Shown one piece after another: positions 4,439 through 61,449 of a stretch of 64,000 nt of DNA; position 1 is the stretch's first letter; each line of letters opens with the position of its first letter. The DNA comes from a bacterium (GTDB taxonomy: Bacteria; Hydrothermota; Tepidihabitantia; Tepidihabitantales; Tepidihabitantaceae), in NCBI GenBank assembly GCA_039793395.1, contig JBAMLV010000020.1, positions 4,418 to 68,417 on the forward strand, read 5' to 3'. Both the position numbers and the translations under genes were made by a program. The notes beneath the pieces are model-generated. The model made no database searches and had not been told where the DNA came from. It saw only the letters and a list, made by a program, of their open reading frames with translations.

Positions 4439-4446
4439 GGTGGAGT

Positions 4447-5568: not shown

Positions 5569-5589
5569 ATTTTGACATAAGGAGGCAAA

Positions 5590-7194: not shown

Positions 7195-7197
7195 ATT

Positions 7198-8318: not shown

Positions 8319-8351
8319 ATAGAATGGTAATTTTTTAAAGAAAGGAGCACC

Positions 8352-8807: not shown

Positions 8808-8810
8808 ATT

Positions 8811-10406: not shown

Positions 10407-10442
10407 CCGCGGGTGGAAGGATGAAGTGGCGACCGCCGTAAG

Positions 10443-30587: not shown

Positions 30588-31065
30588 GATGTTTATTTGA
30601 TTTAATGGGAGGGCTTTGCTCTCCCATTTTTATTTTTTCCCGCATCCGGGCGATTAGCATTTCCGGCTGCGTGCACTGGCGGGCGAGTTGTTCAAACGGA
30701 CAGATGCCGGTGCCGGTCCGGTTGCTGATTTCGGCAACCAGCGTTTCGTAATAAAACGGGATTTGTGCTTCCCGGAGGCGGAGAGCAGCGTGAGCCGACA
30801 TCGTGCGGGCGATCACCTCCTTTACCCTCAGGTGGATGAAAATGGAGCCGGCACAGGTACCGACAATCCGGTCAACAACCGTGGCGCCGTTCAGTCCGGA
30901 AGGGAAAAGAGCGGTTAATTCCAGCAGCGGCTTAACGCCCGGTTCCCGGGAAACAAACAGAATCTTCCCGGATTTGAGTACAATCAGGCGGGCGCCTTTT
31001 CGGCCAAGCAGTTGAAGCAGGCTTTTTGCCCGAACCGGGCGGACCCGGGGTTTGTCCGCGGACAT
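30571..31065 (-). CDS. DUF1893 family protein
   Basis: GVKPLLEL, VVDRIVG, ISNRTGTGICPFEQ motifs. Confidence 0.75.
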   Translation of the reverse strand: MSADKPRVRPVRAKSLLQLLGRKGARLIVLKSGKILFVSREPGVKPLLELTALFPSGLNGATVVDRIVGTCAGSIFIHLRVKEVIARTMSAHAALRLREAQIPFYYETLVAEISNRTGTGICPFEQLARQCTQPEMLIARMREKIKMGEQSPPIKSNKHLSPQF

Positions 31066-31152: not shown

Positions 31153-32166
31153 TTGGACACTTACTTCCTACCAAACGAGCAGCGCGGTTCCTGGCTTGCC
31201 CGACTGGCAGGTAAATTTGATGTTTTTTATCCGGGGGTGGTTGAGGAGCGGGTACACTGGCAGAAATACAACCCCTCAGATTTTCAGATTGAGCAGCTGG
31301 CGTTAAGGCAGATTCGTGCGGCGGAGCCGATCAAGCCTTTTCTTTTTGCCCCACGGGAACGGGTGGCATCATTCCCCGAACCGCTGGCGCCCGAACCGGA
31401 ACCGGTCCGGGTGCTTCTTTTTGGACTCAAGGGTTGTGATTTGCGCGGCCTCGCAGTTCATCAGAAGATGTTTCTGGAAGGTGAGTTTGCCGACCCGTTT
31501 TATGCCCGGCGGCGGCAAAACACCTATTTTATCTCTGCCGACTGTCCGGTACCGGAGAAGAGTTGCTTCTGCAATCTGCTGGGACTGAATCCGTTTGTGA
31601 CTGAGGGTGTGGATTTGAGCCTGACCGAATTGCCTGATGGCTGGTTGGTTGAGGTAATTTCGGAGCGGGGCCGGGAGCTGGTCGACAGTGAATTTAAGCC
31701 GGCGACCGAGGAGCAACTGCGCCGGCGCCAGGCACAACGGGACCAGGCGGTTCAGTTTTTAAAGGAGCAGAATCCTAAGCCCTTGAATCCGAATCTGGCG
31801 CAGGCAATTGCCGAACGGACCGGGGATACAAAATTCTGGGCCGAAGCCGCGGCAGGTTGTGTGGAGTGCTTTGGCTGTCTCACCACCTGCCCGACCTGCT
31901 TCTGCTTTCTGCTTTACGACCAGGGCAATGCCGAACAGTTTGAGCGCAGCAGGGTCTGGGATTTCTGCTATCTGCCAATGTATGCCCGGGTTGGCGGCGG
32001 TGCAAATCCGCGGCCGCGGTTTATCCAGCGGTTCATCAATCGGTTTCACTGTAAGTTTATGCACTTCAAGAACCAGAACGGCTTTTACGCCTGTTCCGGC
32101 TGCGGCCGGTGCTTCACCACCTGTATGGGTAAGATTGATATCCGCAACATTCTGGGGCAGTTATGA
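31153..32166 (+). CDS. 4Fe-4S dicluster protein, sulfhydrogenase beta subunit HydB / AsrA-like
   Basis: GLKGCDL, CPVPEKSCFC, CVECFGCLTTCPTCFCF, RFHCKF, CSGCGRCFTTCMGKIDI. Confidence 0.88.
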   Translation: MDTYFLPNEQRGSWLARLAGKFDVFYPGVVEERVHWQKYNPSDFQIEQLALRQIRAAEPIKPFLFAPRERVASFPEPLAPEPEPVRVLLFGLKGCDLRGLAVHQKMFLEGEFADPFYARRRQNTYFISADCPVPEKSCFCNLLGLNPFVTEGVDLSLTELPDGWLVEVISERGRELVDSEFKPATEEQLRRRQAQRDQAVQFLKEQNPKPLNPNLAQAIAERTGDTKFWAEAAAGCVECFGCLTTCPTCFCFLLYDQGNAEQFERSRVWDFCYLPMYARVGGGANPRPRFIQRFINRFHCKFMHFKNQNGFYACSGCGRCFTTCMGKIDIRNILGQL

Positions 32167-32978
32167 GCAATCCTTATCAGCCGGTTGTTACCAGAATCCT
32201 TAATGTCATTGAGGAAACCCCCAACATCCGGACCTTTGTTCTCAAGCCGGAAAAAGAGATTCCGTTTCTTGCCGGACAGTTTGTGGAACTGACCATTCCG
32301 GGATTTGGTGAGGCACCGTTTACCCCCTCATCTTCCCAGTTTCAGCGGGAGACCCTGGAGATGACGATTATGAGGGTGGGCAGGGCAACCTCGGCGCTTT
32401 TCACCCGGCAACCCGGTGATTTATTGGGCGTCCGTGGTCCATATGGCAAGCCCTATCCGCTGAAGGAGTTTGAGGGCCGGGATATATACATTGTTGGCGG
32501 CGGAGTTGGACTGGCACCCCTGCGTGCCCTGTTTCTGGCGCTGGTGCACGAGATTAAGAAATATGGCCGGATTTATCTCCGTTACGGTGCCCGGACTCCC
32601 AGGGATATCGTTTACAAGCAGCAGTTGAAGGAGTGGGAGAAAATCAATGGTGTGGACATTGACCTTTCGGTGGACAGTGCGACTGAGCCCTGGGAGCGGA
32701 AGGTGGGGGTGGTGACCTGTCTGATGGATGAAATTCCCTGCGATGTAAAGAAGAGCGTGGCGGTGGTGTGCGGGCCACCAATTATGATGAAGTTTGTCAC
32801 CAAAAGGCTGCTGGAAGCCGGGTTTCCGGGTAAGAACATCTATCTGTCAATGGAGATGAATATGTCCTGTGGGGTTGGTCAGTGCGGACACTGCCGGCTC
32901 GGGCCCTATTTTACCTGCAAGGATGGCCCGGTTCTCACCTGGGAGCAGATTAAGGACATTGAGGAGCCGTTCCTGTGA
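32163..32978 (+). CDS. FAD/NAD(P)-binding 2Fe-2S protein, sulfhydrogenase gamma subunit HydG / AsrB-like
   Basis: GQFVELT, GEAPFT, VRGPYG, GGGVGLAPLR, VCGPPIMM, MSCGVGQCGHC...CKDGPV. Confidence 0.9.
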   Translation: MSNPYQPVVTRILNVIEETPNIRTFVLKPEKEIPFLAGQFVELTIPGFGEAPFTPSSSQFQRETLEMTIMRVGRATSALFTRQPGDLLGVRGPYGKPYPLKEFEGRDIYIVGGGVGLAPLRALFLALVHEIKKYGRIYLRYGARTPRDIVYKQQLKEWEKINGVDIDLSVDSATEPWERKVGVVTCLMDEIPCDVKKSVAVVCGPPIMMKFVTKRLLEAGFPGKNIYLSMEMNMSCGVGQCGHCRLGPYFTCKDGPVLTWEQIKDIEEPFL

Positions 32979-34570
32979 AGACCGTCAGGAAATTTGTGTG
33001 CGACTTCTGTCTTAACGGGTGCAACATCGGGATTCTTTTTGACGGTTATCAGTACCGGATTGAGTATCTGACCGAGGAACCGCCCAATTACGGCCGGCTG
33101 TGTCCCAGGGGAAACAGTGCCAGTATCGTCATTGACCATCCGAAAAGGCTCTGCTATCCGCTCCTTGATGGCAAAGAGATAACCTGGCAGCAGGCGCTGA
33201 ATACGATTCAGCAGTGGCTGGATGAGTGTTCCGGCAGGGAACGGGCAGTTGTTTATAGCCGGGGGTTGAGTCCAGCAGAAGCGGCAACGGTTGCCGGTTT
33301 TGCCCGGCAGCTGGGAACGGAAAATCTGGTGTGCGGTTATCTGGAACCGGACAACTTTTTAGGTGTTCAGCTGGCAGGGGTGAGGAGGGCAAAACTGGAA
33401 GAGGTGCAGTCCGCCCGGGCAATCCTTTTGGTGGGTGATGTGTTCAGCGCTTCACCGGTGGCAGCAAAATTCATCCTTGACGCCCGGTATGCAGAAAGAA
33501 ATAGCCGGCTGGTGGTGATTGATTCCATCCGGACCAGGCAGTCTGGATTTGCCCAGCTGTTTCTGCTGGTGAAGCCCGGAACCGAATACCGGGCGCTGGC
33601 AGCAATTGCCGGTATCCTGGACCCGAAGCTGAATCTGGATGTTGACCGTTTTGCCGTTGAATGCGGGGTGGAGCGAAGCCGGCTGGAAGAGGCGGCGGCG
33701 ATTTTGAAATCCACGCCCGCAGGTCTGGTGGGCGCGGCTGCCAGTTTCGGCCGGGTTGCCAATCCCCTGCTCCACAGTTTGTGTGCCCAGCTGGTGGCAC
33801 TCAAGACCGACAAGCCCTTTGCCGGTTTTGCCGAGGCGCTGATTCCAAATGGAAGGCTAAGTTTCCAGCAGTTTCAGGAAAAGGTTGTTCAGGGGCAGAT
33901 TAAGATGATTTTCTGGTTTGGCGGGCTTTTCCCGTATAGCTATCCTGAAGTTTTCCCAGCGCTGAGTCAGGTTCGGTTTCGGGTAGCAACAACCATTTTC
34001 CGGTTGAGTTCACCCCTGCCCGGGCTGGTGCTGCCAGTGGTAAGTGAATTTGAGAAGTCCGGCAGCGGTGAAACTCTGTGGCGGCAGGTGAGCCGGGAGC
34101 CGGTTGTCAGACCGGTGAGCGGTTCAAGACTGATCAGTGAGATTATTCAAGGGATTACCGGCAGCACCGCTACCGAGTCCCTGAATGTGCCGGTGCCGGT
34201 TCAGGTTGATAAATTGCTGGAATGGTTAGCAGGTTCCCGCAAGCCGGAGCCGGTTTCCGGTTATCTATTGGTTGGCGAACGCCGGGCAATCGGCATCGGT
34301 GAGTTTTACGATTCAGAAGAAGAGATCACTGTTAATCCAGCGGATGCCCGGCAGCTCGGGGTGAAGGATGAGGAGCTGGTAACGGTGAAGAGCCGAACCG
34401 CCGAGGAGCAGTTCCGGGTGAAAGTTTCGGGTGCGGTACCGGCTGGTGTGCTGGTGGTCGGGGTTGACGCGCACCGGAACCGCCGGCTGTTTTCAGTAGA
34501 ATTTGACGAGCCGGGCGGCATTGCTACAATTCCACCGACCAAGGTTGAAGTATGGCGGACTCAGGGATAA
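32975..34570 (+). CDS. Molybdopterin-oxidoreductase-fold protein (NuoG C-half/Fdh alpha-like), apparently lacking the metal ligand
   Basis: CDFCLNGC...LCPRG 4Fe-4S motif, RLCYPL, ITWQQAL, LVVIDS, C-terminal VNPADARQLGVKDEELVTVKS domain; no C/U-H at the Fdh ligand position. Confidence 0.75.
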   Translation: MKTVRKFVCDFCLNGCNIGILFDGYQYRIEYLTEEPPNYGRLCPRGNSASIVIDHPKRLCYPLLDGKEITWQQALNTIQQWLDECSGRERAVVYSRGLSPAEAATVAGFARQLGTENLVCGYLEPDNFLGVQLAGVRRAKLEEVQSARAILLVGDVFSASPVAAKFILDARYAERNSRLVVIDSIRTRQSGFAQLFLLVKPGTEYRALAAIAGILDPKLNLDVDRFAVECGVERSRLEEAAAILKSTPAGLVGAAASFGRVANPLLHSLCAQLVALKTDKPFAGFAEALIPNGRLSFQQFQEKVVQGQIKMIFWFGGLFPYSYPEVFPALSQVRFRVATTIFRLSSPLPGLVLPVVSEFEKSGSGETLWRQVSREPVVRPVSGSRLISEIIQGITGSTATESLNVPVPVQVDKLLEWLAGSRKPEPVSGYLLVGERRAIGIGEFYDSEEEITVNPADARQLGVKDEELVTVKSRTAEEQFRVKVSGAVPAGVLVVGVDAHRNRRLFSVEFDEPGGIATIPPTKVEVWRTQG

Positions 34571-35046
34571 AGGTGCAGAGCCGGAAGCGGCTTTTTGTTC
34601 GGCTGGATTACTGTATTGGCTGCCGGTCGTGTGAGGCGGCATGCCGGAGCCGGTTCAAGGGTGAAGCCCGGGTCCGTTATGCCGAGGTGAATGAAACCAC
34701 ACTCATTCCCCTGCCCTGCCGGCACTGTGAGGAGCCGCTGTGTGCTGCTGCCTGTCCGTTTGAGGTTATTAGAAAGGATGAGCAGGGGGGGATTGTCTAT
34801 CAGTCCAGTGTTCACTGTGTCGGCTGTCGCTCCTGTATCCTTGCCTGTCCGTTCGGGGTGCTGGACAAAGAGCTGTTGCGCCGGATGGCACAGAAGTGCA
34901 ATCTGTGTCAGGACCGGCCTGAGGGCCCGCGCTGTGCTGCCAGCTGTCCGACCGGGGCGCTTTGCTTCATTGACGAGGGTGAAATTGCGGAGCAGCAGGT
35001 GGGTAAGCGGACAACCGCCCGGCTGCCGTTCTGGAGGCGGGTATGA
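34552..35046 (+). CDS. 4x[4Fe-4S] ferredoxin-like subunit (HycB/HydN-like)
   Basis: CIGCRSCEAAC, CRHCEEPLCAAACP, CVGCRSCILACP, KCNLC...PRCAASCPTGAL. Confidence 0.9.
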   Translation: MADSGIKVQSRKRLFVRLDYCIGCRSCEAACRSRFKGEARVRYAEVNETTLIPLPCRHCEEPLCAAACPFEVIRKDEQGGIVYQSSVHCVGCRSCILACPFGVLDKELLRRMAQKCNLCQDRPEGPRCAASCPTGALCFIDEGEIAEQQVGKRTTARLPFWRRV

Positions 35047-35999
35047 GCACTTGGCTTACGGGCTGGCGGCTGGTGCTGGGTTTTATTTTCACGATGGTGA
35101 CGGTGCCGATTGCCGGGCTGGTGCTTACCTGGGTGGACCGGTTCGTTTCTGCCCGGGTTCAGTGGCGCAAGGGTCCACCATTCTATCAGCCCTTTGCCGA
35201 CCTGCTCAAACTACTTCTGAAGCAGACGGTGGTGCCGGAGGGTGCGGTCCGGTCGGTGTTTCTATTTGCCCCGCTGGTTGGACTGGCAGGAATGATTTTG
35301 GTGGGAATGATGCTCTTTTACAGCAATTTTAATGTGATTGTCAGTCAGCAGAGTTCATTTGTCGGCGATATCATCGTGCTGCTTTATCTCTTTGCCCTGG
35401 TCCCGCTTGCCTTCATCGTTGGTGCCTCGGCATCAAGAAATCCGGTTGCCGCGGTGGGAGCGTCCCGGGAGATGACCCTTTATCTCGGTTACGAACTGCC
35501 GTTCGTGCTGGCGCTTTTGGTGCCGGTTGTCAAGGTGGCACAGCGCTGGGGTGTTGCCAGCGGGTTGCGCCTCGGCGGCATCATTGCCTATCAGCAGCAG
35601 TTCGGACCGGTGCTTTATTCCATTTCCGGCGTGATTGCCGCGATTATCATCCTGTTTGTCATTCAGGCAAAACTGGGCTATGTGCCGTTTGACATTCCCG
35701 AAGCCGAGCAGGAGATAATGTCCGGAGTAATTGTTGAATATTCTGGCGCACCGCTGGCGGCATTTCGTCTCACCCGGGCGATGATGTTTGTGCTCCTGCC
35801 CCTGTTCCTGATTACCATTCTCTGGGGTGGAATTCGGGACTGGTGGGCAGTGCTGAAATTGCTGCTGATTGTGGTGCTCGTCGTCCTGATGAAGAATACC
35901 AATCCGCGGTTGACCGTTCATCAGGCGTTGAAGTTTTTCTGGTTTATTCTGACCCCGCTGGGAATCGTGGGATTGATTCTGGCGTTCATTGGCTTATGA
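35043..35999 (+). CDS. mbhM: Membrane subunit NuoH/HycD/MbhM family
   Basis: RVQWRKGPPFYQPFADLLKLL, VPFDIPEAEQEIMSGVIVEYSG, KNTNPRLT. Confidence 0.88.
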   Translation: MSTWLTGWRLVLGFIFTMVTVPIAGLVLTWVDRFVSARVQWRKGPPFYQPFADLLKLLLKQTVVPEGAVRSVFLFAPLVGLAGMILVGMMLFYSNFNVIVSQQSSFVGDIIVLLYLFALVPLAFIVGASASRNPVAAVGASREMTLYLGYELPFVLALLVPVVKVAQRWGVASGLRLGGIIAYQQQFGPVLYSISGVIAAIIILFVIQAKLGYVPFDIPEAEQEIMSGVIVEYSGAPLAAFRLTRAMMFVLLPLFLITILWGGIRDWWAVLKLLLIVVLVVLMKNTNPRLTVHQALKFFWFILTPLGIVGLILAFIGL

Positions 36000-36412
36000 A
36001 GGATATTAGGCTCTGGGGACTGAAGAAATCGCCCTGGGTTTACCATGTGGCGGCAGCATCCTGTAACAACTGCGACATTGAGATTCTGGAACTCTTGACC
36101 CCGCGCTACGATGTTGAGCGGTTCGGAATTGTTTTAGTCGGCTCACCCCGGCATGCCGATGCGCTGCTGGTAACCGGGGTAATTAATCGGAAGTCACTGC
36201 CCCGGGTGCTTGAGGTTTATGAGCAGACGCCGAAGCCCTGTCTGGTGATTGCGGTCGGCACCTGTGCCTGTAACTGTCACATCTTCCGGAACTCCTACAA
36301 TGCGGTCGGTCCTTATGACCGGCACATCCCGGTTCATGCCTATATCCCGGGCTGTCCACCCAAACCCGAGGCGATGATTATGGGTGTGGTAAAGGCGTTG
36401 AGCAAACTATGA
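35996..36412 (+). CDS. mbhJ: Hydrogenase small subunit NuoB/MbhJ family
   Basis: SCNNCDIE, YDVERFG, SPRHADALLVTG, AVGTCA, IPGCPPKPE. ATG 35996 overlaps the preceding stop; ORF-track start 35843 is too far upstream. Confidence 0.92.
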   Translation: MKDIRLWGLKKSPWVYHVAAASCNNCDIEILELLTPRYDVERFGIVLVGSPRHADALLVTGVINRKSLPRVLEVYEQTPKPCLVIAVGTCACNCHIFRNSYNAVGPYDRHIPVHAYIPGCPPKPEAMIMGVVKALSKL

Positions 36413-36864
36413 GGAGCGATTCGCTAAGTAAGTTACAGGAAAGATTTCCTCAGGCAGAGGTGTTTGAGAAAAACCCCCGGCGGCTTTATATAAAAGTGCC
36501 GAAAGAGCAGATAACCCCGGTGGCAAAATTTCTGCACAACGAACAGGGAATGCGGCTTTCCATCTGCACCGGCATAGATACCCGGGACGGCTTTGAGGTT
36601 CTTTATCACTTTTCCGAAGATGCTACCGGTGTGATTTACACAATCAAGGTGCTGGTGCCCAAGGATGACCCGAAGGTTGATTCGCTCGGGTCGTGGTTTC
36701 CGGCGGCACAATGGATTGAACGGGAGATGCACGAACTGCTGGGAATAGAATTTGTGGGTCATCCGAACCTGATTCCTTTATTGACATCGGACAGCGACTG
36801 GGAAGCGGACCGGCATCCTTTGCGCCGGGACTATGAGAAAAGGAATGAAGCCCATGAGCGATGA
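36409..36864 (+). CDS. mbhK: NuoC/MbhK family subunit
   Basis: RLSICTGID, FEVLYHF, WIEREMHELLGIEFVGHP, HPLRRD. Confidence 0.9.
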   Translation: MRSDSLSKLQERFPQAEVFEKNPRRLYIKVPKEQITPVAKFLHNEQGMRLSICTGIDTRDGFEVLYHFSEDATGVIYTIKVLVPKDDPKVDSLGSWFPAAQWIEREMHELLGIEFVGHPNLIPLLTSDSDWEADRHPLRRDYEKRNEAHER

Positions 36865-38044
36865 GGTAAAGAACCGCCGGATTGTGCCGATTGGTCCGTA
36901 TCACCCGCTTCAGGAAGAGCCGGAGTTCTTTAAACTGATTGTTGAAGGTGAGCAGGTGGTGGATTTAGAGATTAATATCGGTTATAACCACCGGGGTCAT
37001 GAGTTCATCTCTCCGGAACTGACCTATGAGCAGGTGCCGTTTCTGGTGGAGCGGATCTGTGGCATCTGTTCTAACTCCCATCCGCTGGCAGCGGTGCTGG
37101 CGATTGAGGACTGTGCCGGTATTAAGCCACCACCCCGGGCAAATTACATCCGTTCAATCATCCATGAACTGGAGCGGATTCACTCCCACCTTTTGTGGCT
37201 GGGGCTTGCCGGACACTTCATCGGTTACAATACGGTCTGGATGTGGGCGTGGCGGTATCGGGAGCATATCCTGCAGGTTTTTGAGATGATTACCGGCAAC
37301 CGAAACCATTATGGTGCAAACAAACCGGGCGGGGTGCGCTGGGATATCAAGCCGGAGCAGGTGCCTGAAATTCGTGCTGCTCTGGACCTGGTGGAGCAGA
37401 AGACACTGATGCTCACCAAGGCGATTCTTGACGACCCGGTGACGAGGGCACGGCTGGAAGGGGTGGGGATTCTCACCCGGGAGCAGGCAATCGCCTGGTC
37501 GGTGGTTGGTCCAACCGCGCGGGCATCCGGGGTGGATATTGATGTCCGCCGGGATGACCCGCACTGCGCCTATGACCAGGTGCCCTGGAGTGTGATTGTT
37601 CTACCTGAAGGCGATGTGCTTGCCAAGGCAAAGGTAAGATTGCTGGAGATTTTTGAGTCAATTAAAATCATCCGGGGTTGTCTGGACCGGCTGCCGGACG
37701 GCCCGATTGAACTGCGGATAGATGAGATTCCGCCGGGCGAAGGGATTGGCAGAACCGAAGCACCGCGGGGTGAGGTCTTTCATTACATCCGTTCGGACGG
37801 AACGAACCGGCCGCTCCGGCACAAAATTCGGGCACCCAGTTATATGAATATCGCCTCCAATGTGGTGGCGGTTAAGGGCGGGTCAATTGCCGATGCGGCG
37901 TTGACCCTGGCTGCGGTTGACCCTTGCTACTGCTGCACCGAACGGATGGCGGCATTTGAAGACGGCAAGCTGAAGTATTCGGGCCAGGAACTGCTACGGC
38001 TTTCCTGGGAAAAGACCGAAAAGCTCCGGGAGCGGCTCAAATGA
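36854..38044 (+). CDS. mbhL: Group 4 [NiFe] hydrogenase large subunit (MbhL-like)
   Basis: IGPYHP, HRGHE, L1 motif ERICGIC, L2 motif DPCYCCTER, EAPRGE, RAPSYMN; 32-aa C-terminal extension after the L2 Arg. Confidence 0.93.
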   Translation: MSDEVKNRRIVPIGPYHPLQEEPEFFKLIVEGEQVVDLEINIGYNHRGHEFISPELTYEQVPFLVERICGICSNSHPLAAVLAIEDCAGIKPPPRANYIRSIIHELERIHSHLLWLGLAGHFIGYNTVWMWAWRYREHILQVFEMITGNRNHYGANKPGGVRWDIKPEQVPEIRAALDLVEQKTLMLTKAILDDPVTRARLEGVGILTREQAIAWSVVGPTARASGVDIDVRRDDPHCAYDQVPWSVIVLPEGDVLAKAKVRLLEIFESIKIIRGCLDRLPDGPIELRIDEIPPGEGIGRTEAPRGEVFHYIRSDGTNRPLRHKIRAPSYMNIASNVVAVKGGSIADAALTLAAVDPCYCCTERMAAFEDGKLKYSGQELLRLSWEKTEKLRERLK

Positions 38045-39252
38045 GTTTCGGCAACTGGTTGACTTTTGCCGGCGGTAAACTGGAGGTTTTCCTGACCCTG
38101 GTTTTCGGTTTTATCGGTCTGATGGCGCTGGTTTACTCCCTTGCCCGGGTGAAAGGTACGGCGCGGGAAAAGGCAGAATACTATATTTTCCTGCTGGTGC
38201 TCATCGGTGCCGGCATTGCCCTGGTCTTTGCCCGGGAAATACTTTTGATTTTTGTGATGTGGGAACTGGCAACAATTGCCCTCTGGCGCCTGGTCTCCTA
38301 CTTCCGGGATAAAGAGGCGGTTGATGCCGGCCGGTGGGCGTTTTATATCAATTTCGCCGCGGCCGCGGTTATGCTTGTCGGTCTGGTAATGATCTGGCTG
38401 GAATTCGGCACCTGGAATCTGGACCGGCTTGCCGGCCGGAGCCTGCCGCTGTTGCCGGCGCTCTTGGTGCTGGTAGGGATTGTTGCCAAATCCGCAGCGC
38501 TACCATTATATATCTGGCTCCCCCGGGCATATCGGCAGGCACCGGCAGCGGTTTGTGCATTGCTTTCCGGTGTGGCGGAAAATCTGGGGCTGGTGCTGTT
38601 TCTGAAACTTTTTGTCCTGACGGTGCAGGTTCCGGATTTATTTTATCTCATCAGTGCGATTGTTGCGCTCAGTTCCAGTCTGGTGGCGGGTGGGGTGGCA
38701 ATTAATTCCAGAACCATCCGGGAGACGCTTGCCTATTCCACGGTCAGCCAGCTGGGATTTATTCTGCTGGCATTCTCGGTGCGCGGTTACTATGGCATCA
38801 CCAGTGGTCTGCTTTACATTCTGGCACATGCGGTCGCCAAATCCGGGTTGTTCTTTGCAACCGGGGCGGTTGAGGATGGAGCCGGCACCGGTGAACTGGA
38901 ACGGCTTGGCGGCTGGGCAAAGGTATCTCCGGCACTCGCCGGTGCAACCGGGGTGCTGGCACTTTCAATTATGGGGCTGCCGCCGACCCTTGGATTTTTT
39001 GCCAAACTGGGGGTGGTGCTGGCTGCGGTGCGCAGTAACTTGCTGTACGGTATTGGGGCGCTGGTTGCGGCGTTGTTCACGGTGCTTTATCTGAGCCGTT
39101 TTTACACCCGGGTTTTTCTGGGTGCAAATGGAAGCCAAAATGCCCGGGTTTCAAAAATTGCCATTACCCTGGTGATAATTATGGCGGTGGTCTCCATCGG
39201 CGCCGGTCTTTTGTGGTTTGTGCCGGTCGGGTTTGTTGGCGGAGGCTGGTGA
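38041..39252 (+). CDS. Proton-conducting antiporter-like subunit (short MrpD/NuoN-like)
   Basis: FVMWELATI, AKSAALPLYIWLPRAY, TLAYSTVSQLG, HAVAKSGLF, GLPPTLGFFAK. Confidence 0.85.
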   Translation: MSFGNWLTFAGGKLEVFLTLVFGFIGLMALVYSLARVKGTAREKAEYYIFLLVLIGAGIALVFAREILLIFVMWELATIALWRLVSYFRDKEAVDAGRWAFYINFAAAAVMLVGLVMIWLEFGTWNLDRLAGRSLPLLPALLVLVGIVAKSAALPLYIWLPRAYRQAPAAVCALLSGVAENLGLVLFLKLFVLTVQVPDLFYLISAIVALSSSLVAGGVAINSRTIRETLAYSTVSQLGFILLAFSVRGYYGITSGLLYILAHAVAKSGLFFATGAVEDGAGTGELERLGGWAKVSPALAGATGVLALSIMGLPPTLGFFAKLGVVLAAVRSNLLYGIGALVAALFTVLYLSRFYTRVFLGANGSQNARVSKIAITLVIIMAVVSIGAGLLWFVPVGFVGGGW

Positions 39253-41180
39253 TGCTGGCAAATTCGTTTGTGCTGATGATACTCTTGCCGGCTGTAACCG
39301 GACTATTGGGCTATCTGATTGGCAGGTTAAGGAATGAGTTCAGTTTTATCGGCACGGTTGCTTCGCTCTATTATGCGCTCCGGCTGTTTCTTTTGTCCCG
39401 GGGCGGCGAACCGTTGAGTCTGACCCTGATGGAAATTGCGGGCATTCCGCTCGGTTTCCGGCTGGACCAACTTTCCGGGTTCATCCTTCTGTTTGTCAGT
39501 ATCTTTACCACGCTGATACTTTTCTATTCATTCCGGTATATGCGTGGCCGGGAAGGAACCCGGGGTTATTACCTTTATTCACTTCTGATTCTTGCCTTTG
39601 CCAACGGTGTGGTGCTCGCTACCAATCTGGTTACGCTCTTTTTCTTCTGGGGCGGTTTGCTCCTGTTGCTCTATGCCATTCTGCTAATCGGTCGGGGTGA
39701 AACCTTCAGAACTGCGCGCAAGGCGCTGGTCATCGTCGGGCTATCCGATTTTGCAATGCTTTTAGGGCTGGTGCTGCTGATTGTCCGGACCTATGTGCCG
39801 GGCGGCTGGATTGAACTGGCACCCCGGGTACCACTTCCACTCTATGACCCGGCGCTGGTTGCCGGTTTTGTCCTCATCACCGCGGGTGCGCTTGCCAAAG
39901 CGGGCGCGATGCCACTGCACACCTGGATTCCAACTGCGGCTGAAACCGCCCCCGCGCCGGTAATGGCACTGATACCGGCTTCACTGGACAAACTGTTAGG
40001 CATTTATCTTTTAATCCGGCTCACGGTTTATATGTTTGACATCGCCAGCAATATGGTGCTGCGCAATGTGTTGATGGCAGTCGGTGCGGGGACGATCCTC
40101 TTTGCGGTGATGATGGCGCTAATTCAGAAGCGGATGATGAAACTGCTGGCTTTCCATGCGGTATCGCAGGTGGGGTATATGGTCCTGGGAATTGGCACCG
40201 GAATCCCGGTCGGAATTGCGGGTGGACTGTTCCATATGCTCAACAATGCGATTTACAAGACCGGGCTGTTCCTTGCCGGTGGTTCGGTTGAGCACTGGGC
40301 AAAGACTGATGAACTGGAGAAACTGGGTGGGGTGGGCAGGCAGATGCCATTAACATTTGTCTCCTTCTTTATCTGTGCAATGGCGATTGCCGGGGTGCCG
40401 CCCTTGAACGGCTTTTTCTCCAAGTGGATGGTTTATCAGGGAGTGCTGGGTGTTGGCATTGAGGGGAACCGGCTGTTTCCAGTTTTTCTGGTGGCAGCGA
40501 TGTTTGGTAGTGTGCTGACTCTGGCGTCGTTTTTAAAGCTGATACACGGACTGTTTCTCGGGCAGCGTCCCCAAACACTGGCGCGGGTCCGGGAGGTAAG
40601 CATGACGATGTGGCTGCCGCCGTTTCTGCTTGCACTTGCCTGTGTCGCATTTGGTGTTTTCGCTTATCAGTTGCCGCTGCGCGGGCTCATCATCCCCGGG
40701 CTCAGGTTTTACGACCTGAATCTCACCGGGGTCTGGAGCCCGATTCCGGCAACGCTCTTGCTGCTGGCAGCGCTCGGTCTGGGCGCGATAATTTATTTTG
40801 CGGGCACGGCGGTCCGGCCGGTTACCGGCAGGACATTTGTCGGTGGCGAGCGGATTGGTTATAATGAGGAGAGCCGGGTGCCGGGAACCGCATTCTACTC
40901 CTCGGTCAAGCAGATGCCGATTGTCGGTGACCTGCTGGTTTTTGGTGAACGCGGGGCATTTGACCTCTATAACTGGCTGATAGGGATTTTCCGGGTGGTT
41001 GGCTATGTCTTCCGCGAAGGGGTTGACCGGGCGTTGCAGGCGCTGACCGAATTTATTGGCAAACTGGTTTATTACTTCGGGCTCGGGCTCTCTCGGATTC
41101 ATACCGGTAATTTGCCCCTTTATCTCTCGTGGGTATTCTTAGGTGCGGTGATTTTTTATCTGCTGCTGTTTTTGAGGTAG
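39252..41180 (+). CDS. Antiporter-like subunit MrpA/NuoL-like with C-terminal extension
   Basis: RLDQLS, KAGAMPLHTWIP, LLAFHAVSQVGY, KTGLFL, GVPPLNGFFSKW, IHTGNLPLYL. ATG 39252 overlaps prior stop, after GGAGG. Confidence 0.88.
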   Translation: MLANSFVLMILLPAVTGLLGYLIGRLRNEFSFIGTVASLYYALRLFLLSRGGEPLSLTLMEIAGIPLGFRLDQLSGFILLFVSIFTTLILFYSFRYMRGREGTRGYYLYSLLILAFANGVVLATNLVTLFFFWGGLLLLLYAILLIGRGETFRTARKALVIVGLSDFAMLLGLVLLIVRTYVPGGWIELAPRVPLPLYDPALVAGFVLITAGALAKAGAMPLHTWIPTAAETAPAPVMALIPASLDKLLGIYLLIRLTVYMFDIASNMVLRNVLMAVGAGTILFAVMMALIQKRMMKLLAFHAVSQVGYMVLGIGTGIPVGIAGGLFHMLNNAIYKTGLFLAGGSVEHWAKTDELEKLGGVGRQMPLTFVSFFICAMAIAGVPPLNGFFSKWMVYQGVLGVGIEGNRLFPVFLVAAMFGSVLTLASFLKLIHGLFLGQRPQTLARVREVSMTMWLPPFLLALACVAFGVFAYQLPLRGLIIPGLRFYDLNLTGVWSPIPATLLLLAALGLGAIIYFAGTAVRPVTGRTFVGGERIGYNEESRVPGTAFYSSVKQMPIVGDLLVFGERGAFDLYNWLIGIFRVVGYVFREGVDRALQALTEFIGKLVYYFGLGLSRIHTGNLPLYLSWVFLGAVIFYLLLFLR

Positions 41181-41183
41181 TTT

Positions 41184-41729
41184 ATGATTGAACTTTATCT
41201 TCTGCTGGCGGTGATGCTGGCGGCGGCGCTGGTTGCCAGCGAGACCAGTAACCTGTTGGCGGCGGCGGTTGCCCTGGGACTGGTCGGCTTCAGTGTGGCG
41301 ATTATGTTCATCCTGGTTCAGGCGCCAGACCTGGCAATAGTGCAGATTGTGGTGGAGACACTGACCGTGGTTTTCTTTACCGCGGTCATCCTCCGGACGA
41401 CCGACATTGACACCACGGTTACTCAGGGGTTGAAGATGGAAACGGCGATGTTCATTGCCGCTTTTCTGGCGTTCGGCGGACTGTTTCTGGCGTTGATTAT
41501 CGGCGTGCTTCAGGAACTGCCGCGCTTTGGCGAACCGGTGATGCGTATTGCCCAGCAGTATGTGCAACTCGGACTTGAGCGGACCGGGGCGGCGAATATC
41601 GTTTCCGCAATCATTCTTGACTTCCGCGGCTATGATACATTAGGTGAGGCGACGGTGCTCTTTACCGCCGTGGTCGGGGTGCTGACGGTGGTGCGCCTTG
41701 CCAGCCGGAAAAAGCCAGGGGAGTTTTAA
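41184..41729 (+). CDS. MbhD/MbhE-like (DUF4040 + MnhB-type) fusion subunit
   Basis: QAPDLAIVQIVV, GAANIVSAIILDFRGYDTLGEATVL. Confidence 0.85.
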   Translation: MIELYLLLAVMLAAALVASETSNLLAAAVALGLVGFSVAIMFILVQAPDLAIVQIVVETLTVVFFTAVILRTTDIDTTVTQGLKMETAMFIAAFLAFGGLFLALIIGVLQELPRFGEPVMRIAQQYVQLGLERTGAANIVSAIILDFRGYDTLGEATVLFTAVVGVLTVVRLASRKKPGEF

Positions 41730-41730
41730 G

Positions 41731-42171
41731 ATGCGCGGGATGTCGCTGATTGTCCGGGTGATGACCGGTCTGCTTGCCGGGATACTGATGCTCTACGGCG
41801 GTTACATCATTCTCCACGGTCATCTGACTCCCGGGGGTGGTTTTGCCGGCGGGGTGCTGGTGGCGGCGGCACTGATTCTGGTTTCGCTGGCACACGGGTC
41901 GGTGGAGCAGGTGGAGCGCCGGGAGTATATCCTCTCGTCAGTCTTTGAGAGTTCAGGCGGGTTGCTGTTTCTCGGTCTGGCGCTCGCCGGCTACATTGCT
42001 GCGGACTGTTTCTTCCGGAATGCCGGACTGTTTTTCATCGGTCAGCCCTTACAACTGGTAAGCGGTGGACTGATTCCGCTGGCAAACATCGCCATCGGCT
42101 TGAAAGTCGGTGCCGGGCTGTTTGCCATCTTTCTGGCACTCGGTGCCTCAAGATTTGTGATGAAGGAGTAG
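41731..42171 (+). CDS. mnhB: Na+/H+ antiporter subunit B (MnhB/MbhF)
   Basis: HGHLTPGGGFAGG, NIAIGLKV. Confidence 0.88.
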   Translation: MRGMSLIVRVMTGLLAGILMLYGGYIILHGHLTPGGGFAGGVLVAAALILVSLAHGSVEQVERREYILSSVFESSGGLLFLGLALAGYIAADCFFRNAGLFFIGQPLQLVSGGLIPLANIAIGLKVGAGLFAIFLALGASRFVMKE

Positions 42172-42173
42172 CG

Positions 42174-42527
42174 ATGATTCCCTATGTTGCCTGTGTGCTT
42201 TTGTTTCTTATCGGTCTATATGTGGTTATTTCCAAGCGGAATCTGATTAAGATTGTCATTGGATTTTCTCTGATTGAATATGCGGTCAACCTGTTCTTTG
42301 CCCTGGTCGGTTTTAAAAAGGGGGCGCTGGCACCAATCATCACCACCCTGGAGCAGGTGCGGATGGGTGTGAACCGCAACTTTGTTGACCCGGTGCCCCA
42401 GGCGCTGGTGCTGACCGCAATCGTCATCGGTCTGTCCACGACCGCGCTGATGCTTTCCCTCGCAATGCGGCTTTATGAAAAGTATAAAACCTTTGACATT
42501 TCAGAAATCAGACGGCTGAAAGGATAG
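42174..42527 (+). CDS. mnhC: Na+/H+ antiporter subunit C (MnhC/MbhG)
   Basis: RNLIKIVIG, DPVPQALVLTAIVIG. Confidence 0.92.
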   Translation: MIPYVACVLLFLIGLYVVISKRNLIKIVIGFSLIEYAVNLFFALVGFKKGALAPIITTLEQVRMGVNRNFVDPVPQALVLTAIVIGLSTTALMLSLAMRLYEKYKTFDISEIRRLKG

Positions 42528-42529
42528 CG

Positions 42530-44035
42530 ATGGAAGGCAGGATATTACCGCTGTTTGTCGCCATTCCGCTTGCCGGTGCATTTCTGGTACCGCTTTTGTC
42601 CAAACTGTGGTCCAGATTTTCCGACCTGATTGCCAGCATCGCCAGTGCACTGCTGCTCGGGATTTCAATTTACAGCTGGTTGATAATCAGTGCCGCCGGT
42701 GTGCCGCTGCATTACTGGGTCGGTGGCTGGCGTCTTATTGGCATTGCGATGTGGTTTGATGCCCTGACCGCGCTCGTGGTCTTCATCATTAATATTGTCG
42801 GTTTCTGTGCCACCATTTATTCCATCCGATATCTTGACCGCTACACCTCGGGCCGGTGGAAGTTTTTCACCCTGCTGCTTTTGCTCATCGCCGGACTGAA
42901 CGGACTGGCAATTTCCGGTGACCTGTTTAATATGTTCGTATTCATTGAGATTTCGGCGATTGCCAGTTATGCGCTGGTGGCATTTGGCACCGAAGAGGAG
43001 GAGGTGGAGGCGGCGTTTAAGTATATGGTGCTGGGTGAGGTCGGGGGAGCAATTCTTTTGTTTGGCATTGCGCTCCTTTATGCCCGGGCATCGACGCTCA
43101 ATCTCGCCCATCTTTCCCAGGTGCTTGCGGGTATGGGCAGGACACCATTCTACTGGTTTGTGATTGCCACCCTGCTGGTCGGCTTTGCCATTAAGATGGG
43201 GATGGAGCCGTTCCATGCCTGGCTGGCTGATGCCCATTTTTCAGCACCGGCGCCGATTTCAGCAATGCTCTCCGGCGTCTTCATCAAGATTACCGGTGTT
43301 TATGGGATGTGCCGGTTGATGTTCAATGTATTCGGGGTTTCCCGGCTGGAGACACCGGCATTCTTCAACCTGTTAATCGCCTTCGGTGCGGTCTCAATGG
43401 TGCTGGGCGGACTGCTGGCTTACACCCAGAGCGATTACAAGCGGCTGCTCGCCTATTCCAGTATCAGTCAGATTGGCTATCTCCTGGTGGCGCTGGGGAT
43501 TGGTAATTTCTGGGGTATAGCGGGCGCACTGTTTCACATTATTGCGCATGCGCTTGCTAAGGGCACCCTGTTTCTGGCAGCCGGTTCGGTTGAGCGTCAG
43601 GCTGGTACCCGCAACCTGGAGCAGCTCCGGGGTCTGGAGCGGGTGATGCCGGCCACCACCTGGTCGCACATCATCGCTTCCTTCTCAATGGCGGGGTTAC
43701 CACCGTTTGCCGGCTTCTTCTCCAAGTTGTTCATCATCATCGGCGCCCTAACAGCCCGGATGTACTGGCTGGCTTTTCTTGCGGCCCTGTTCTCGGCGGT
43801 GACCCTCGGTTATTTGACCAAAGTGGTCAATCTGTCTTTTTTTGCCCGCAAGGATGAGCCGCCAACTACTGCCCGGGAGGCACCGGCACTGATGGTGCTG
43901 GCAACCCTGCTTTTGGTGGTGCTGGTGCTGGCAGCGGGTCTGGGGTTCAAGGGGGTGCTTGACCATCTGGTCGGACCGGCGGCAAAAGTGCTTTTGAACG
44001 GGCTGGAATATGCCCGTCTGGTTCTGGGAGGATAG
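42530..44035 (+). CDS. mnhD: Na+/H+ antiporter subunit D (MnhD/MbhH)
   Basis: GDLFNMFVFIEI, AAFKYMV, PFHAWLADAH, KRLLAYSSISQIGY, GLPPFAGFFSK. Confidence 0.92.
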   Translation: MEGRILPLFVAIPLAGAFLVPLLSKLWSRFSDLIASIASALLLGISIYSWLIISAAGVPLHYWVGGWRLIGIAMWFDALTALVVFIINIVGFCATIYSIRYLDRYTSGRWKFFTLLLLLIAGLNGLAISGDLFNMFVFIEISAIASYALVAFGTEEEEVEAAFKYMVLGEVGGAILLFGIALLYARASTLNLAHLSQVLAGMGRTPFYWFVIATLLVGFAIKMGMEPFHAWLADAHFSAPAPISAMLSGVFIKITGVYGMCRLMFNVFGVSRLETPAFFNLLIAFGAVSMVLGGLLAYTQSDYKRLLAYSSISQIGYLLVALGIGNFWGIAGALFHIIAHALAKGTLFLAAGSVERQAGTRNLEQLRGLERVMPATTWSHIIASFSMAGLPPFAGFFSKLFIIIGALTARMYWLAFLAALFSAVTLGYLTKVVNLSFFARKDEPPTTAREAPALMVLATLLLVVLVLAAGLGFKGVLDHLVGPAAKVLLNGLEYARLVLGG

Positions 44036-44524
44036 GTGGCACGCCGATTTGCCTATTTTCTTGCCGGACTTTTGGTCTGGTTGCTCTTAGGCTGGACCCT
44101 GAACTATCAGGAGGTGATTGTCGGTGCGGCGGTGGCGCTGATTGCCGCGGGGATGTTTGGCGGTTATTTACCGCTGGAACCGAAAAAACTGCTCAATCCC
44201 GCCCGCTGGTTCTGGCTGCTGGTCTACATTCCGGTATTCGGCTGGCAGTGTCTCAAGGCAAATATTGATGTTGCGCTGCGGGTGCTCTCGCCGGGTTTGA
44301 ACCTGAAGCCGGGAATTGTCAAAATCAAAACCGGTCTGAAAAGTGACATTGCCAAGGTTTTTCTTGCGAACTCAATTACGATGACCCCGGGAACCCTGAC
44401 CGTGGAGATCAAGGACGACACCCTTTACATTCACTGGATTGAAATCCGCAGTGATGACCCAGAGGAGATGGCAAAAATGATTAAAGGACCGTTTGAATTC
44501 TTTCTGAAGCGGATTTTTGATTAA
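44036..44524 (+). CDS. mnhE: Na+/H+ antiporter subunit E (MnhE/MbhA)
   Basis: ANIDVA, KPGIVKI, LANSITMTPGTLT, LYIHWI. Confidence 0.92.
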   Translation: MARRFAYFLAGLLVWLLLGWTLNYQEVIVGAAVALIAAGMFGGYLPLEPKKLLNPARWFWLLVYIPVFGWQCLKANIDVALRVLSPGLNLKPGIVKIKTGLKSDIAKVFLANSITMTPGTLTVEIKDDTLYIHWIEIRSDDPEEMAKMIKGPFEFFLKRIFD

Positions 44525-44533
44525 GGAGGCGGA

Positions 44534-44785
44534 ATGGTGCCAATTATTGTATTGGTTCCGGCGGCGCTGTTCTGCCTGTATCGGGCGCTGGTTGGACCTT
44601 CAATTGCCGACCGGGCGATTGCGGTGGATATGATGGGTGTGGTTTTTTCGGCAATCACCGCGCTGGTCGCACTCAAATTCAGGCTCAGCTATCTGCTGGA
44701 CATTGCAATTGCGCTGGCGGTAATTTCCTTTATCGGTGCGCTGGCGCTGGCGAAGTTTCTTGAGAAAAGGAGCCTTGATGATTAG
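44534..44785 (+). CDS. mnhF: Na+/H+ antiporter subunit F (MnhF/MbhB)
   Basis: GPSIADRAIAVD, LDIAIALAVISFIG. Confidence 0.9.
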   Translation: MVPIIVLVPAALFCLYRALVGPSIADRAIAVDMMGVVFSAITALVALKFRLSYLLDIAIALAVISFIGALALAKFLEKRSLDD

Positions 44786-45149
44786 CGTGCTGGCGCTGAT
44801 TTTTCTGTGGCTGGGGGTTGCCTTTGTGCTGCTCGGGGCCCTGGGACTGGCAAGATTCCCAGACCTCTACAACCGGATGCAGGCCGCGACCAAATGTGTT
44901 ACCCTTGGAGTATGCGGAATTATGATTGGCATCTTTTTGCGCTCGGGTTTCAATTCCCTTGGTATCAAGGCGCTCATCTGTGCCCTTTTCATCCTTTTCA
45001 CCGTGCCCGTTTCCAGCCACGCCCTGGTCCGGGGTTCGCTGATCGCCGGGGTTAAACTCTGGCGGGGCACGGTCAAAGACGAGTTTACGGCTGACCGGGG
45101 TGGTGCATCAATCATTGAAAGCAATACCGGCAGCGGGGAGGAGCGATGA
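44778..45149 (+). CDS. mnhG: Na+/H+ antiporter subunit G (MnhG/MbhC)
   Basis: GLARFPDLYNRMQAATK, PVSSHAL; ATG 44778 after AGGAG. Confidence 0.9.
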   Translation: MISVLALIFLWLGVAFVLLGALGLARFPDLYNRMQAATKCVTLGVCGIMIGIFLRSGFNSLGIKALICALFILFTVPVSSHALVRGSLIAGVKLWRGTVKDEFTADRGGASIIESNTGSGEER

Positions 45150-45757
45150 GGTTGCCATTACCAAAAATCCGGGAACTGGCGGAGGCGGTGCGGGCGGTGG
45201 TCAAAGGGCCGTTTACCACCAGATTTCCGAAAAAGGTAGATTCAGTCCATCCGAACTTCCGGGGTATCCTCAAATTTCGGGATGAGCTGTGTATCTGCTG
45301 TGGTGCCTGCTCTCAGGTGTGTCCAACCGATGCCCGGGAATTGATTCTTGACCGGCAGAAAGGGGTGATGCGGATTGTCCATCATGCGGACCGCTGCATC
45401 TACTGCGCCCAGTGTGTCAAAGCCTGTCCCACCCAGGCAATCTATCACACCCCGGAGTTTGACCTTTCCCGCACCGAGCGCGGCGGCTGGGATACCTTTG
45501 TGGAAAAGGAGCTTGTCTGCTGTGAAATGTGTGGCGAGCCATTTGCCACCAGGGCGCAGCTGCTGCATATTGCCCATAAAGTGGGCGATTTAGTGAATGC
45601 CAATCCGACCCTGCTGTTAACCCTTTATCAGCAGCTGGGGGTGGCGGTCCCGGAAACCGCACCGGCAACAGTCCTGCCCTACCGTTCGGGCACGATGCGC
45701 ATCCTCTGTCCGGACTGCCGGCGCAAGGTCTATATGACCGAACAGTGGGGCTATTGA
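45146..45757 (+). CDS. mbhN: 2x[4Fe-4S] subunit NuoI/HycF/MbhN family
   Basis: TTRFP, FRG, CICCGACSQVCP, CIYCAQCVKACP, extra CEMC...CPDC pair. Confidence 0.88.
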   Translation: MRLPLPKIRELAEAVRAVVKGPFTTRFPKKVDSVHPNFRGILKFRDELCICCGACSQVCPTDARELILDRQKGVMRIVHHADRCIYCAQCVKACPTQAIYHTPEFDLSRTERGGWDTFVEKELVCCEMCGEPFATRAQLLHIAHKVGDLVNANPTLLLTLYQQLGVAVPETAPATVLPYRSGTMRILCPDCRRKVYMTEQWGY

Positions 45758-47647: not shown

Positions 47648-47649
47648 GG

Positions 47650-48237: not shown

Positions 48238-48240
48238 AAC

Positions 48241-50466: not shown

Positions 50467-50469
50467 GAT

Positions 50470-51771: not shown

Positions 51772-51784
51772 AAATTTAAGTAAA

Positions 51785-51812
51785 ATTTTAATTAGCGGGC
51801 TATTAGTGTCAA
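51785..51812 (-). promoter_or_regulatory. Promoter for rnfCDGEAB
   Basis: Minus strand TTGACA, 16 nt, TAAAAT, 13 AT-rich nt, ATG; no SD. Confidence 0.7.
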
Positions 51813-61411: not shown

Positions 61412-61449
61412 TTGTCCTCCTCTCAAATTTAGCCTGCACATCTTGTATT

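Follow-up and report, generated by a model that had tools for sequence, protein, structure and literature searches.

A formate dehydrogenase relic without its catalytic residues as probable iron-sulfur adaptor between an NAD(P)H module and a group 4 [NiFe]-hydrogenase in candidate division WOR-3

In the formate hydrogenlyase (FHL) of Escherichia coli, electrons pass from cluster A1 of the formate dehydrogenase (FDH) subunit FdhF via clusters B1-B4 of HycB to HycF, HycG and the [NiFe] site (PMC9474812). For the operon type described here, the sole relevant report that we found in the literature concerns the 'enigmatic' group 4 hydrogenase of Saganbacteria RX5A (Matheus Carnevali et al. 2019, Supplementary Note 5; PMC6349859), where asrA-like and asrB-like genes, an unclassifiable single-cluster molybdopterin oxidoreductase and a cooF-like gene accompany a hydrogenase and Mrp antiporter-like subunits; the oxidoreductase subunit was taken as molybdopterin-containing, and its active site was not analysed. 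A gene set of the same kind (the likeness is one of gene content) is present in a 64,000-nucleotide stretch of contig JBAMLV010000020.1 (assembly GCA_039793395.1), which was analysed as a whole and is called the window below. It includes a 531-aa subunit with an FdhF-derived MopB fold (hereafter the MopB-like subunit; Table 1), and we consider it probable that this protein is a catalytically dead relic of an FdhF/FdhA-type FDH, which carries no molybdenum or tungsten (Mo/W) cofactor and has been reused as an iron-sulfur (Fe-S) adaptor or wire joining an NAD(P)H module to an ion-pumping hydrogenase.

The nearest described system by both sequence and fold is the FdhF-HycB module of FHL (PDB 7Z0S/7Z0T, 1FDO), with 1fdi matched by Foldseek at an E-value of 6.7e-29 and a query TM-score (TMq) of 0.79. 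Both systems have an N-terminal [4Fe-4S] site and a HycB-like four-cluster partner feeding a group 4 [NiFe]-hydrogenase, but unlike FdhF the MopB-like subunit lacks SeCys140 (selenocysteine, Sec) and His141, the Arg333 loop and FdhF ~555-598, and the operon encodes an Mrp/Mbh-type membrane arm where FHL has HycC/D only, as well as an extra NAD(P)H module upstream. A second parallel is the C-terminal domain of NuoG/Nqo3 of complex I, likewise an FDH-derived MopB fold without catalytic ligand in which only the FS0/N7 [4Fe-4S] cluster is kept, and likewise with an NAD(P)H-oxidising module on one side and a Q/hydrogenase module of the complex I type on the other; the change from GxN to GxD and a shortened 'tgR...H' segment are found in E. 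coli NuoG too. In contrast to E. coli NuoG, the MopB-like subunit begins at the FS0 motif and has no Fer2_4, NADH-G_4Fe-4S_3 or Fer4_Nqo3 matches, and its diaphorase is of the sulfhydrogenase beta/gamma type rather than NuoEF. That diaphorase resembles sulfhydrogenase 1 of Pyrococcus furiosus (PDB 9NEZ), where NAD(P)H is oxidised with the FAD, [2Fe-2S] and Fe-S clusters of the beta and gamma subunits; there they serve the soluble group 3b alpha/delta subunits, whereas here their genes accompany those for an FdhF relic, a HycB-like partner and a group 4 enzyme bound to the membrane. Reuse of the molybdoenzyme fold for non-catalytic purposes in respiratory complexes has precedents in the cofactor-less MopB subunits QrcB (Desulfovibrio Qrc) and ActB (alternative complex III), but these complexes are periplasmic, quinone-linked and of other clades, whereas the system in the window is a cytoplasmic hydrogenase input module.

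The gene of the MopB-like subunit starts with GTG and runs for 531 uninterrupted codons (0 internal stops), which makes the protein 184 aa shorter than the 715-aa E. coli FdhF and also shorter than cytoplasmic FDHs (670-685 aa). A near-identical public protein (P0001) is annotated in a metagenome-assembled genome (MAG) of candidate division WOR-3; it is listed as 100% identical and differs at residue 220 (33632-33634; Glu in P0001, Asn in the window; DPKLELDVD / DPKLNLDVD), which is a single-residue strain difference. The family comprises about 117 clusters of 515-570 aa with 43-73% identity to the MopB-like subunit, nearly all labelled candidate division WOR-3, and a scan of species genomes with the family alignment gave matches in WOR-3 MAGs only, representing 36 species, with no cultured host among the matched genomes. 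The sequence is also present in hot-spring metagenome DNA runs, with no RNA run among the sequencing runs matched. The open reading frame (ORF) is intact in 36 species and contains invariant residues, which rules out a pseudogene or decaying gene, and the family is real and under selection. At greater distance, an exhaustive profile search returned 129 clusters (50% identity) at E<1e-30 and 1480 at E<1e-10, and many of these matches are 520-620 aa long, align end-to-end and have no Cys at the ligand column.

An AlphaFold2 model was made with the 109-sequence family alignment, which also underlies the residue counts out of 109 given here, and reached a predicted local distance difference test (pLDDT) score of 94.7 and a predicted TM-score (pTM) of 0.94. 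The model and Foldseek show the four-domain architecture of the MopB/DMSO-reductase fold, consisting of the FS0 domain, two alpha-beta-alpha domains and a C-terminal beta-barrel. An earlier note on this DNA had proposed a structural alignment with FdhF and Nqo3 at the bis-MGD contacts. The best Foldseek matches were whole FDHs and periplasmic nitrate reductases (Nap) (TMq 0.78-0.81; 0.75-0.81 for FDH, Nap, acetylene hydratase and Psr together) as opposed to 0.62-0.74 for NuoG/Nqo3. In searches of solved structures the family profile matched FDHs at 8e-32 to 7e-17 and Nqo3 at 6e-10, and HHalign aligned the family with an FdhF-type alignment at a probability of 100 (E 1.6e-60). By these matches, the MopB-like subunit is a diverged member of the cytoplasmic FdhF/FdhA branch and not of the NuoG branch.

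Matches of the protein to curated models are weak, with the Pfam family PF01568 (Molydop_binding) being the only one above its gathering score. PF00384 (Molybdopterin, 21.7 bits vs 24) and PF04879 (Molybdop_Fe4S4, 21.2 bits vs 22.7) fall below theirs, and the NCBIfam models for Fdh-alpha (TIGR01591, 88.9 bits vs a cutoff of 666.25, with only residues 8-214 aligning well), NuoG (TIGR01973, 36.8 vs 470), QrcB (29.2 vs 440) and formylmethanofuran dehydrogenase (TIGR03129, 19.9 vs 327.8) are all far from their cutoffs. We therefore rejected the assignment as an FDH, of which three defining features fail (Sec/Cys-His pair, Arg333 loop and TIGR01591 cutoff), and as a member of NuoG, given the absence of the N-terminal Fe-S domains and of NuoEF partners and the TIGR01973 score. 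Some Joint Genome Institute annotations name relatives of the protein 'FwdD'; an identity as FwdB plus FwdD, a short MopB protein which does bind W/Mo, fails on the TIGR03129 score, the missing Cys-His and the missing Arg loop.

The catalytic apparatus of formate dehydrogenase is gone from this protein, as judged by comparison with fdhF, napA and nuoG of E. coli MG1655. Where cytoplasmic FDHs read GTNNVDxCARx[U/C]HGP, the MopB-like subunit has GTENLVCGYLEPDN, and the Sec/Cys column falls on E124 in the HMMER alignment, on P125 in the MAFFT alignment and on a gap in that of HHalign. HMMER places P125 on His141, and HHalign leaves U140-H141 gapped with P125 on FdhF P143. On the residue that replaces SeCys140 the three alignments disagree by one or two positions, and the robust part is that none of them has Cys, Sec or Ser at the ligand position or an adjacent His. 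E124 is Glu in 106 and Asp in 3 of the 109 family members, P125 is present in 104/109, and E124 is not kept at 90% across the wider hydrogenase-linked family. Two further segments are deleted according to both MAFFT and HHalign: the Arg333 loop, and most of FdhF ~555-598 in domain IV, including 'STVREVGHYSCRSMTGN'. Both are recognisably conserved in FdhF, NapA and a canonical MopB protein (P0120), and both are missing from the short clade to which the WOR-3 family belongs; E. coli NuoG keeps the first of the two and has a shorter deletion in the second. Our literature search yielded nothing usable in the way of residue-level contact lists for molybdopterin guanine dinucleotide (MGD) in FdhF, and the deleted segments are presumed here to bind MGD, partly from what is known of these enzymes and partly from their conservation in cofactor-binding relatives.

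The PF00384 scores can be calibrated with a true FDH (P0223, 244.8 bits) and with the cofactor-free E. coli NuoG (63.9 bits), so that the signal for a pterin-binding domain appears weaker in the MopB-like subunit than in a protein which has no pterin to bind. Because SeCys/Cys140, His141, the Arg333 loop and the conserved domain-IV segment have all been lost, we infer that the protein most likely binds no Mo/W-bis-pyranopterin. The ORFs scanned in the window include no genes for molybdenum cofactor synthesis, Mo/W transport or selenocysteine incorporation, and at 64 kb the window is too short for this to be informative.

The MopB-like gene lies within an operon on a single strand (31153-45757, +; Table 1), which has the features of a group 4 Mrp-linked membrane-bound [NiFe]-hydrogenase, i.e. 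NuoB/C/H/I-like and Mrp subunits, with both Ni-Fe Cys pairs of the large subunit intact (RxCGxCxxxH at the N-terminus and DPCxxCxxR at the C-terminus). Upstream are the beta-like and gamma-like subunits, which match the beta (9nez_B, 3.4e-42) and gamma (9nez_C, 1.1e-48) subunits of P. furiosus sulfhydrogenase 1 over their full length; from its domains the gamma-like subunit is identified as an NAD(P)H-binding diaphorase. Its TGA stop codon overlaps the GTG start of the MopB-like gene (GTGA), with a GAGGAG ribosome-binding site upstream, and the 3' end of the MopB-like gene is overlapped by 19 nt by the start of the HycB-like ferredoxin gene, which suggests translational coupling on both sides. 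The order beta, gamma, MopB-like, HycB-like and Mbh/Mrp was kept in all loci examined, comprising the complete WOR-3 genome CP070680.1, all 36 matched WOR-3 species genomes wherever the contig was long enough, a 28%-identical relative and further relatives with 25-33% identity, in which the MopB-like protein has 554-588 aa.

The MopB-like subunit would attach the NAD(P)H:Fe-S module formed by beta and gamma to the HycB-like ferredoxin with its four clusters, and the single FS0 cluster is probably one link between the clusters of the beta subunit and the HycB-like chain. Electrons would then travel from NAD(P)H to FAD and [2Fe-2S] in the gamma subunit, the beta clusters, FS0, the HycB-like clusters, the NuoI-like clusters and the NuoB-like cluster to the [NiFe] site, and the whole complex may work as a reversible NAD(P)H:H+ oxidoreductase, coupled to Na+ or H+ movement via the Mrp-type arm. 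Since the formation of H2 from NAD(P)H is uphill under standard conditions, H2 evolution would have to be driven by an ion gradient, low H2 pressure or high temperature; in the reverse direction, H2-driven reduction of NAD(P)+ would build a gradient and conserve energy. The proposal of the earlier note that an FHL-type Fdh was turned into a scaffold linking a diaphorase to the hydrogenase thus gains support at the sequence level from the lost catalytic loops, a PF00384 score below that of NuoG, the neighbouring genes and the overlaps between them. Its description as 'NuoG-like' holds as an analogy, with the ligand missing and the N7-type cluster kept, but does not hold as kinship, as there are no N-terminal Fe-S domains, the protein is closer to FDHs than to Nqo3, and its partner is HycB-like.

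The Fe-S site itself is the best preserved part of the protein. The N-terminus VC9DFC12LNGC16...RLC43PR45G has the FS0-type [4Fe-4S] motif of molybdopterin oxidoreductases, with a C9-x2-C12-x3-C16 spacing, and R45 stands at the position of Lys44 in FdhF. In the wider hydrogenase-linked family, conservation of 90% or more is limited to the four cysteines, R45 and a few motif residues. In one distant relative (P0118, L003 9971-10000) the called start cuts off the first FS0 Cys, and upstream translation (MPQTTKASCLMCSLQC) restores the CxxCxxxC motif; public gene calls can thus give the impression that the Fe-S site of the family is incomplete.

Such a cluster could also be off-pathway, like N7 of NuoG, in which case the MopB-like subunit would be purely structural, stabilising the assembly only, with electrons passing directly from the beta subunit to the HycB-like ferredoxin. 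In complex I, N7 of Nqo3, which superposes on cluster A1 of FdhF, is held to lie off the electron pathway (PMC9474812), and the high sequence divergence of the MopB-like subunit would also suit such a role. We nevertheless regard this as unlikely, as in FHL the counterpart cluster is on-pathway next to HycB (PMC9474812) and the partner here is HycB-like, and as the four cysteines and R45 show no variation even where identity falls to 22-30%, a tighter constraint than elsewhere in the protein; the latter point weakens the structural alternative and no more, since an N7-type structural cluster would be conserved as well.

In a crude neighbour-joining (NJ) tree the hydrogenase-linked MopB-like proteins form one clade with two branches. 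Members of the long branch keep the Arg-containing loop ('FRGGNAVGA' in P0118) and the 'H..dgslt' segment without having a Cys ligand, and in the short branch, which includes the WOR-3 proteins, loop and segment are both lost. As a point of difference from the system reported in Saganbacteria RX5A, the WOR-3 protein falls in a subclade of shorter proteins with further loops deleted. The decay is graded, from a clade of 550-600 aa without Cys/Sec ligand but with the loops kept, to a clade of 520-555 aa in which the loops are lost too. At the level of the operon, the MopB-like subunit is the least conserved in 20/23 WOR-3 loci, with a mean identity to the window protein of 50.9%, compared to 80.0% for gamma, 83.9% for the large subunit and 88.4% for the NuoB-like subunit. 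This makes it the fastest-evolving subunit of the operon, which fits a scaffold better than a catalytic subunit, in a comparison that covers WOR-3 operons and no catalytic-FDH operons as control. As a separate observation, a NuoG/FdsA-like protein of 895 aa (P0119), with N-terminal 2Fe-2S/4Fe-4S domains, has no Cys at the ligand column either ('GSNNIAASDQALKK') and keeps GSN/DPR/PGTD, and may represent another independent ligand-less MopB lineage.

The same tree places E. coli NuoG as sister to the hydrogenase-linked family, a placement that probably reflects long-branch attraction, given that another NuoG-like sequence did not group there; the tree was therefore not trusted to decide between a shared and an independent origin with NuoG. 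That the hydrogenase-linked family and the MopB domain of NuoG descend from one cofactor-less ancestor, so that these operons would represent surviving kin of an intermediate in the origin of complex I, in which a membrane-bound hydrogenase that already had a dead FDH subunit took up an NAD(P)H-oxidising module, is in our estimation a long shot; if true, the interest of these operons would be considerably higher.

Several observations weigh against the loss of cofactor and function. The residues G154-D155, D183, E204 and E360, which lie in motifs that bind the dinucleotide in real enzymes, are invariant, and these motifs, altered as they are (Table 1; ADVxLPxxxxxE has become LVLP354...E360), are among the most conserved positions of the protein. 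E124-P125 and E287 are near-invariant within the WOR-3 family and the short clade, so that the old active site could still be in some use, and arsenite oxidase binds its cofactor without any protein ligand. The dinucleotide motifs do not decide the question, as equivalents (GED, NVDD, PVED and FAESDG) also persist in E. coli NuoG, which has no pterin in its solved structures, and their retention (GxN/DPR/PGTD/LP..E..G) was accordingly rejected as a sign of cofactor binding.

On another reading, the protein is still a Mo/W-bis-pyranopterin enzyme with non-canonical coordination, by Glu124 or by no protein ligand, acting on an unknown small substrate and passing electrons to the hydrogenase and/or via beta/gamma to NAD(P)+. 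E124 (E/D in 109/109) lies on the Sec/Cys column in the HMMER alignments, the dinucleotide-type motifs of domains II and III are conserved, the overall fold is FDH/Nap-like with a TM-score of ~0.8, and the longer sister clade retains its Arg loop, but this possibility appears quite improbable to us in view of the deletion of the Arg333 loop and the conserved domain-IV segment in the clade of the MopB-like subunit, the lack of E124 conservation in the wider family, the PF00384 signal below that of cofactor-free NuoG and the fast evolution of the subunit; to our knowledge, moreover, Glu is not a ligand of Mo or W anywhere in the MopB superfamily. The earlier note would have abandoned its proposal if a Cys, Ser or Asp ligand aligned at the metal site and the protein bound Mo/W; no Cys or Ser does align, and the near-invariant E124 (Asp in 3/109) does in the HMMER alignments. 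A test based on the ligand is too narrow, as Glu can align and arsenite oxidase needs no ligand. That the former Mo pocket was instead rebuilt into a site for another metal, a nucleotide or a substrate, lined by the carboxylates E124, E287 and E435 with H500 and R503, is very doubtful: these residues are (near-)invariant in the WOR-3 family and the short clade, and E124 and E287 map at or near the SeCys140 and Arg333-loop positions, but their clustering in space is presumed, they are not conserved in the long clade, and no known motif matches.

Table 1. Positions of the MopB-like subunit, its sequence features, the surrounding operon and other elements of the window
Feature	Position	Strand	Basis or remark
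Type IV pilus cluster	3042-12373	+	
Protein with two ThyX matches, 515 aa	26047-27594	+	
DUF1893/TM1506 protein	30571-31065	-	
Sulfhydrogenase beta (HydB/ShyB/AsrA)-like Fe-S subunit, 337 aa	31153..32166	+	NCBIfam: ShyB 1.4e-49, HydB 3.7e-46, AsrA 2.3e-31
Sulfhydrogenase gamma (HydG/AsrB)-like FAD/NAD(P)H/[2Fe-2S] subunit, 271 aa	32163..32978	+	Pfam NAD_binding_1, FAD_binding_6, DHODB_Fe-S_bind
MopB-like subunit, FdhF-derived MopB fold, 531 aa	32975..34570	+	[4Fe-4S] site kept, catalytic residues absent
FS0-type [4Fe-4S] site C9, C12, C16, C43, R45	32999..33109	+	Invariant in 109/109 family members
Former metal-ligand segment GTENLVCGYLEPDN, residues 114-127	33314..33355	+	E124-P125 in place of SeCys140-His141
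Domain-III nucleotide-binding motif relics VGD155 (GxN), ID183SI (DPR), PGTE204 (PGTD)	33428..33592	+	Alignments, family conservation
Deletion site removing the FdhF Arg333 loop ('PVRGQNNVQG...', FdhF ~326-375)	33812..33850	+	MAFFT and HHalign
Domain-IV beta-barrel (Molydop_binding), residues 449-496	34319..34462	+	PF01568, 38.2 bits vs cutoff 26.8
HycB/CooF-like ferredoxin, 164 aa, 16 Cys in four [4Fe-4S] motifs	34552..35046	+	PDB: HycB3 of hydrogen-dependent CO2 reductase 3.5e-23, FHL HycB 1.2e-19
NuoH/HycD/MbhM-like membrane subunit	35043..35999	+	PF00146, 6.7e-57
NuoB-like hydrogenase small subunit	35996..36412	+	PF01058, 4.2e-29
NuoC-like subunit	36409..36864	+	PF00329, 1.2e-29
Group 4 [NiFe]-hydrogenase large subunit	36833..38044	+	RICGICSNSH and DPCYCCTER; MbhL 6cfw_L 2e-78, HycE 7z0s_E 9.5e-76
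Mrp/Mbh-type membrane arm (antiporter-like, MbhD/E, MnhB, NuoK-like, MnhE, MrpF-like, MnhG)	38041..45149	+	Pfam, ORFs
Three antiporter-like subunits	38041-39252, 39213-41180, 42530-44035	+	Pfam
MrpF-like subunit	44534-44785	+	Pfam
NuoI/HycF-like 2x[4Fe-4S] subunit, last operon gene	45146..45757	+	Pfam Fer4_7/Fer4; same place in distant operons L004, L005, L009, L010
Rnf operon: RnfB-like polyferredoxin (336 aa), RnfA/E-like, RnfG-like, RnfD, RnfC	46637-51816	-	RnfD: PF03116, 4e-115; RnfC: Complex1_51K and RnfC_N
Unassigned ORF, 313 aa	58391-59332		Flanks tRNA-Sec
tRNA-Sec, anticodon TCA	59354-59448	-	ARAGORN; single tRNA in the window
Beta-propeller protein sorted by the type IX secretion system	59456-61441		Flanks tRNA-Sec

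Within the operon, the longest ORF of the NuoB-like gene begins at a GTG (35843) inside the NuoH-like gene, and its true start is likely the ATG at 35996, with a 4-nt overlap with the NuoH stop codon and a product of ~138 aa as in the complete WOR-3 genome (L001). The first antiporter-like subunit (403-423 aa) is an addition of the WOR-3 operons located between the large and NuoL-like subunits, and the distant operons L003-L005, L009 and L010 lack it, giving three antiporter-like subunits in WOR-3 vs two. Just upstream of the operon and divergent from it is a gene for a DUF1893/TM1506 protein, the function of which is not known, and this is a conserved neighbour, the complete WOR-3 genome having a member of the family at the corresponding position (L001 7244-7666). 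Directly downstream, on the opposite strand, is a complete-looking Rnf operon, which may connect ferredoxin with the NAD(P)H pool on which the hydrogenase draws.

The only tRNA gene in the window is that for selenocysteine, which is present without an in-frame TGA in the MopB-like gene, and neither selA, selB, selD nor TGA-containing selenoprotein genes were recognised among the scanned window ORFs. All four sequence observations of the earlier note, i.e. an intact CxxCxxxC...C cluster site, an FdhF ligand motif replaced by other residues, a length below that of Fdh alpha subunits, and no in-frame stop in spite of the tRNA-Sec, were present on re-examination. Elsewhere in the window, the protein with two tandem matches to ThyX (Thy1, flavin-dependent thymidylate synthase) resembles a ThyX that has been duplicated or fused, and the type IV pilus cluster contains three N_methyl prepilin-like genes, a PilM-PilN fusion, PilO, a 531-aa secretin, a T2SSE ATPase and a prepilin peptidase.

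To the known operon type these results add evidence for a dead subunit, its graded loss in two clades, the calibration against NuoG and a mechanistic reading. How a dead FDH domain, that of NuoG, came to lie between the NADH module of complex I and its hydrogenase-derived core is an old open question, and the operon described here follows the same logic in a [NiFe]-hydrogenase with other parts, namely sulfhydrogenase beta/gamma subunits, an unfused relic and a HycB-like partner, and so offers an experimentally approachable model of how catalytic subunits become scaffolds in respiratory complexes. Genes of this type should not be counted as FDH or formate hydrogenlyase in metabolic reconstructions from metagenomes. 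The predicted ion-coupled NAD(P)H:H+ oxidoreductase would be a new physiological type, and bears on how uncultured thermophilic fermenters may dispose of or take up reducing power.

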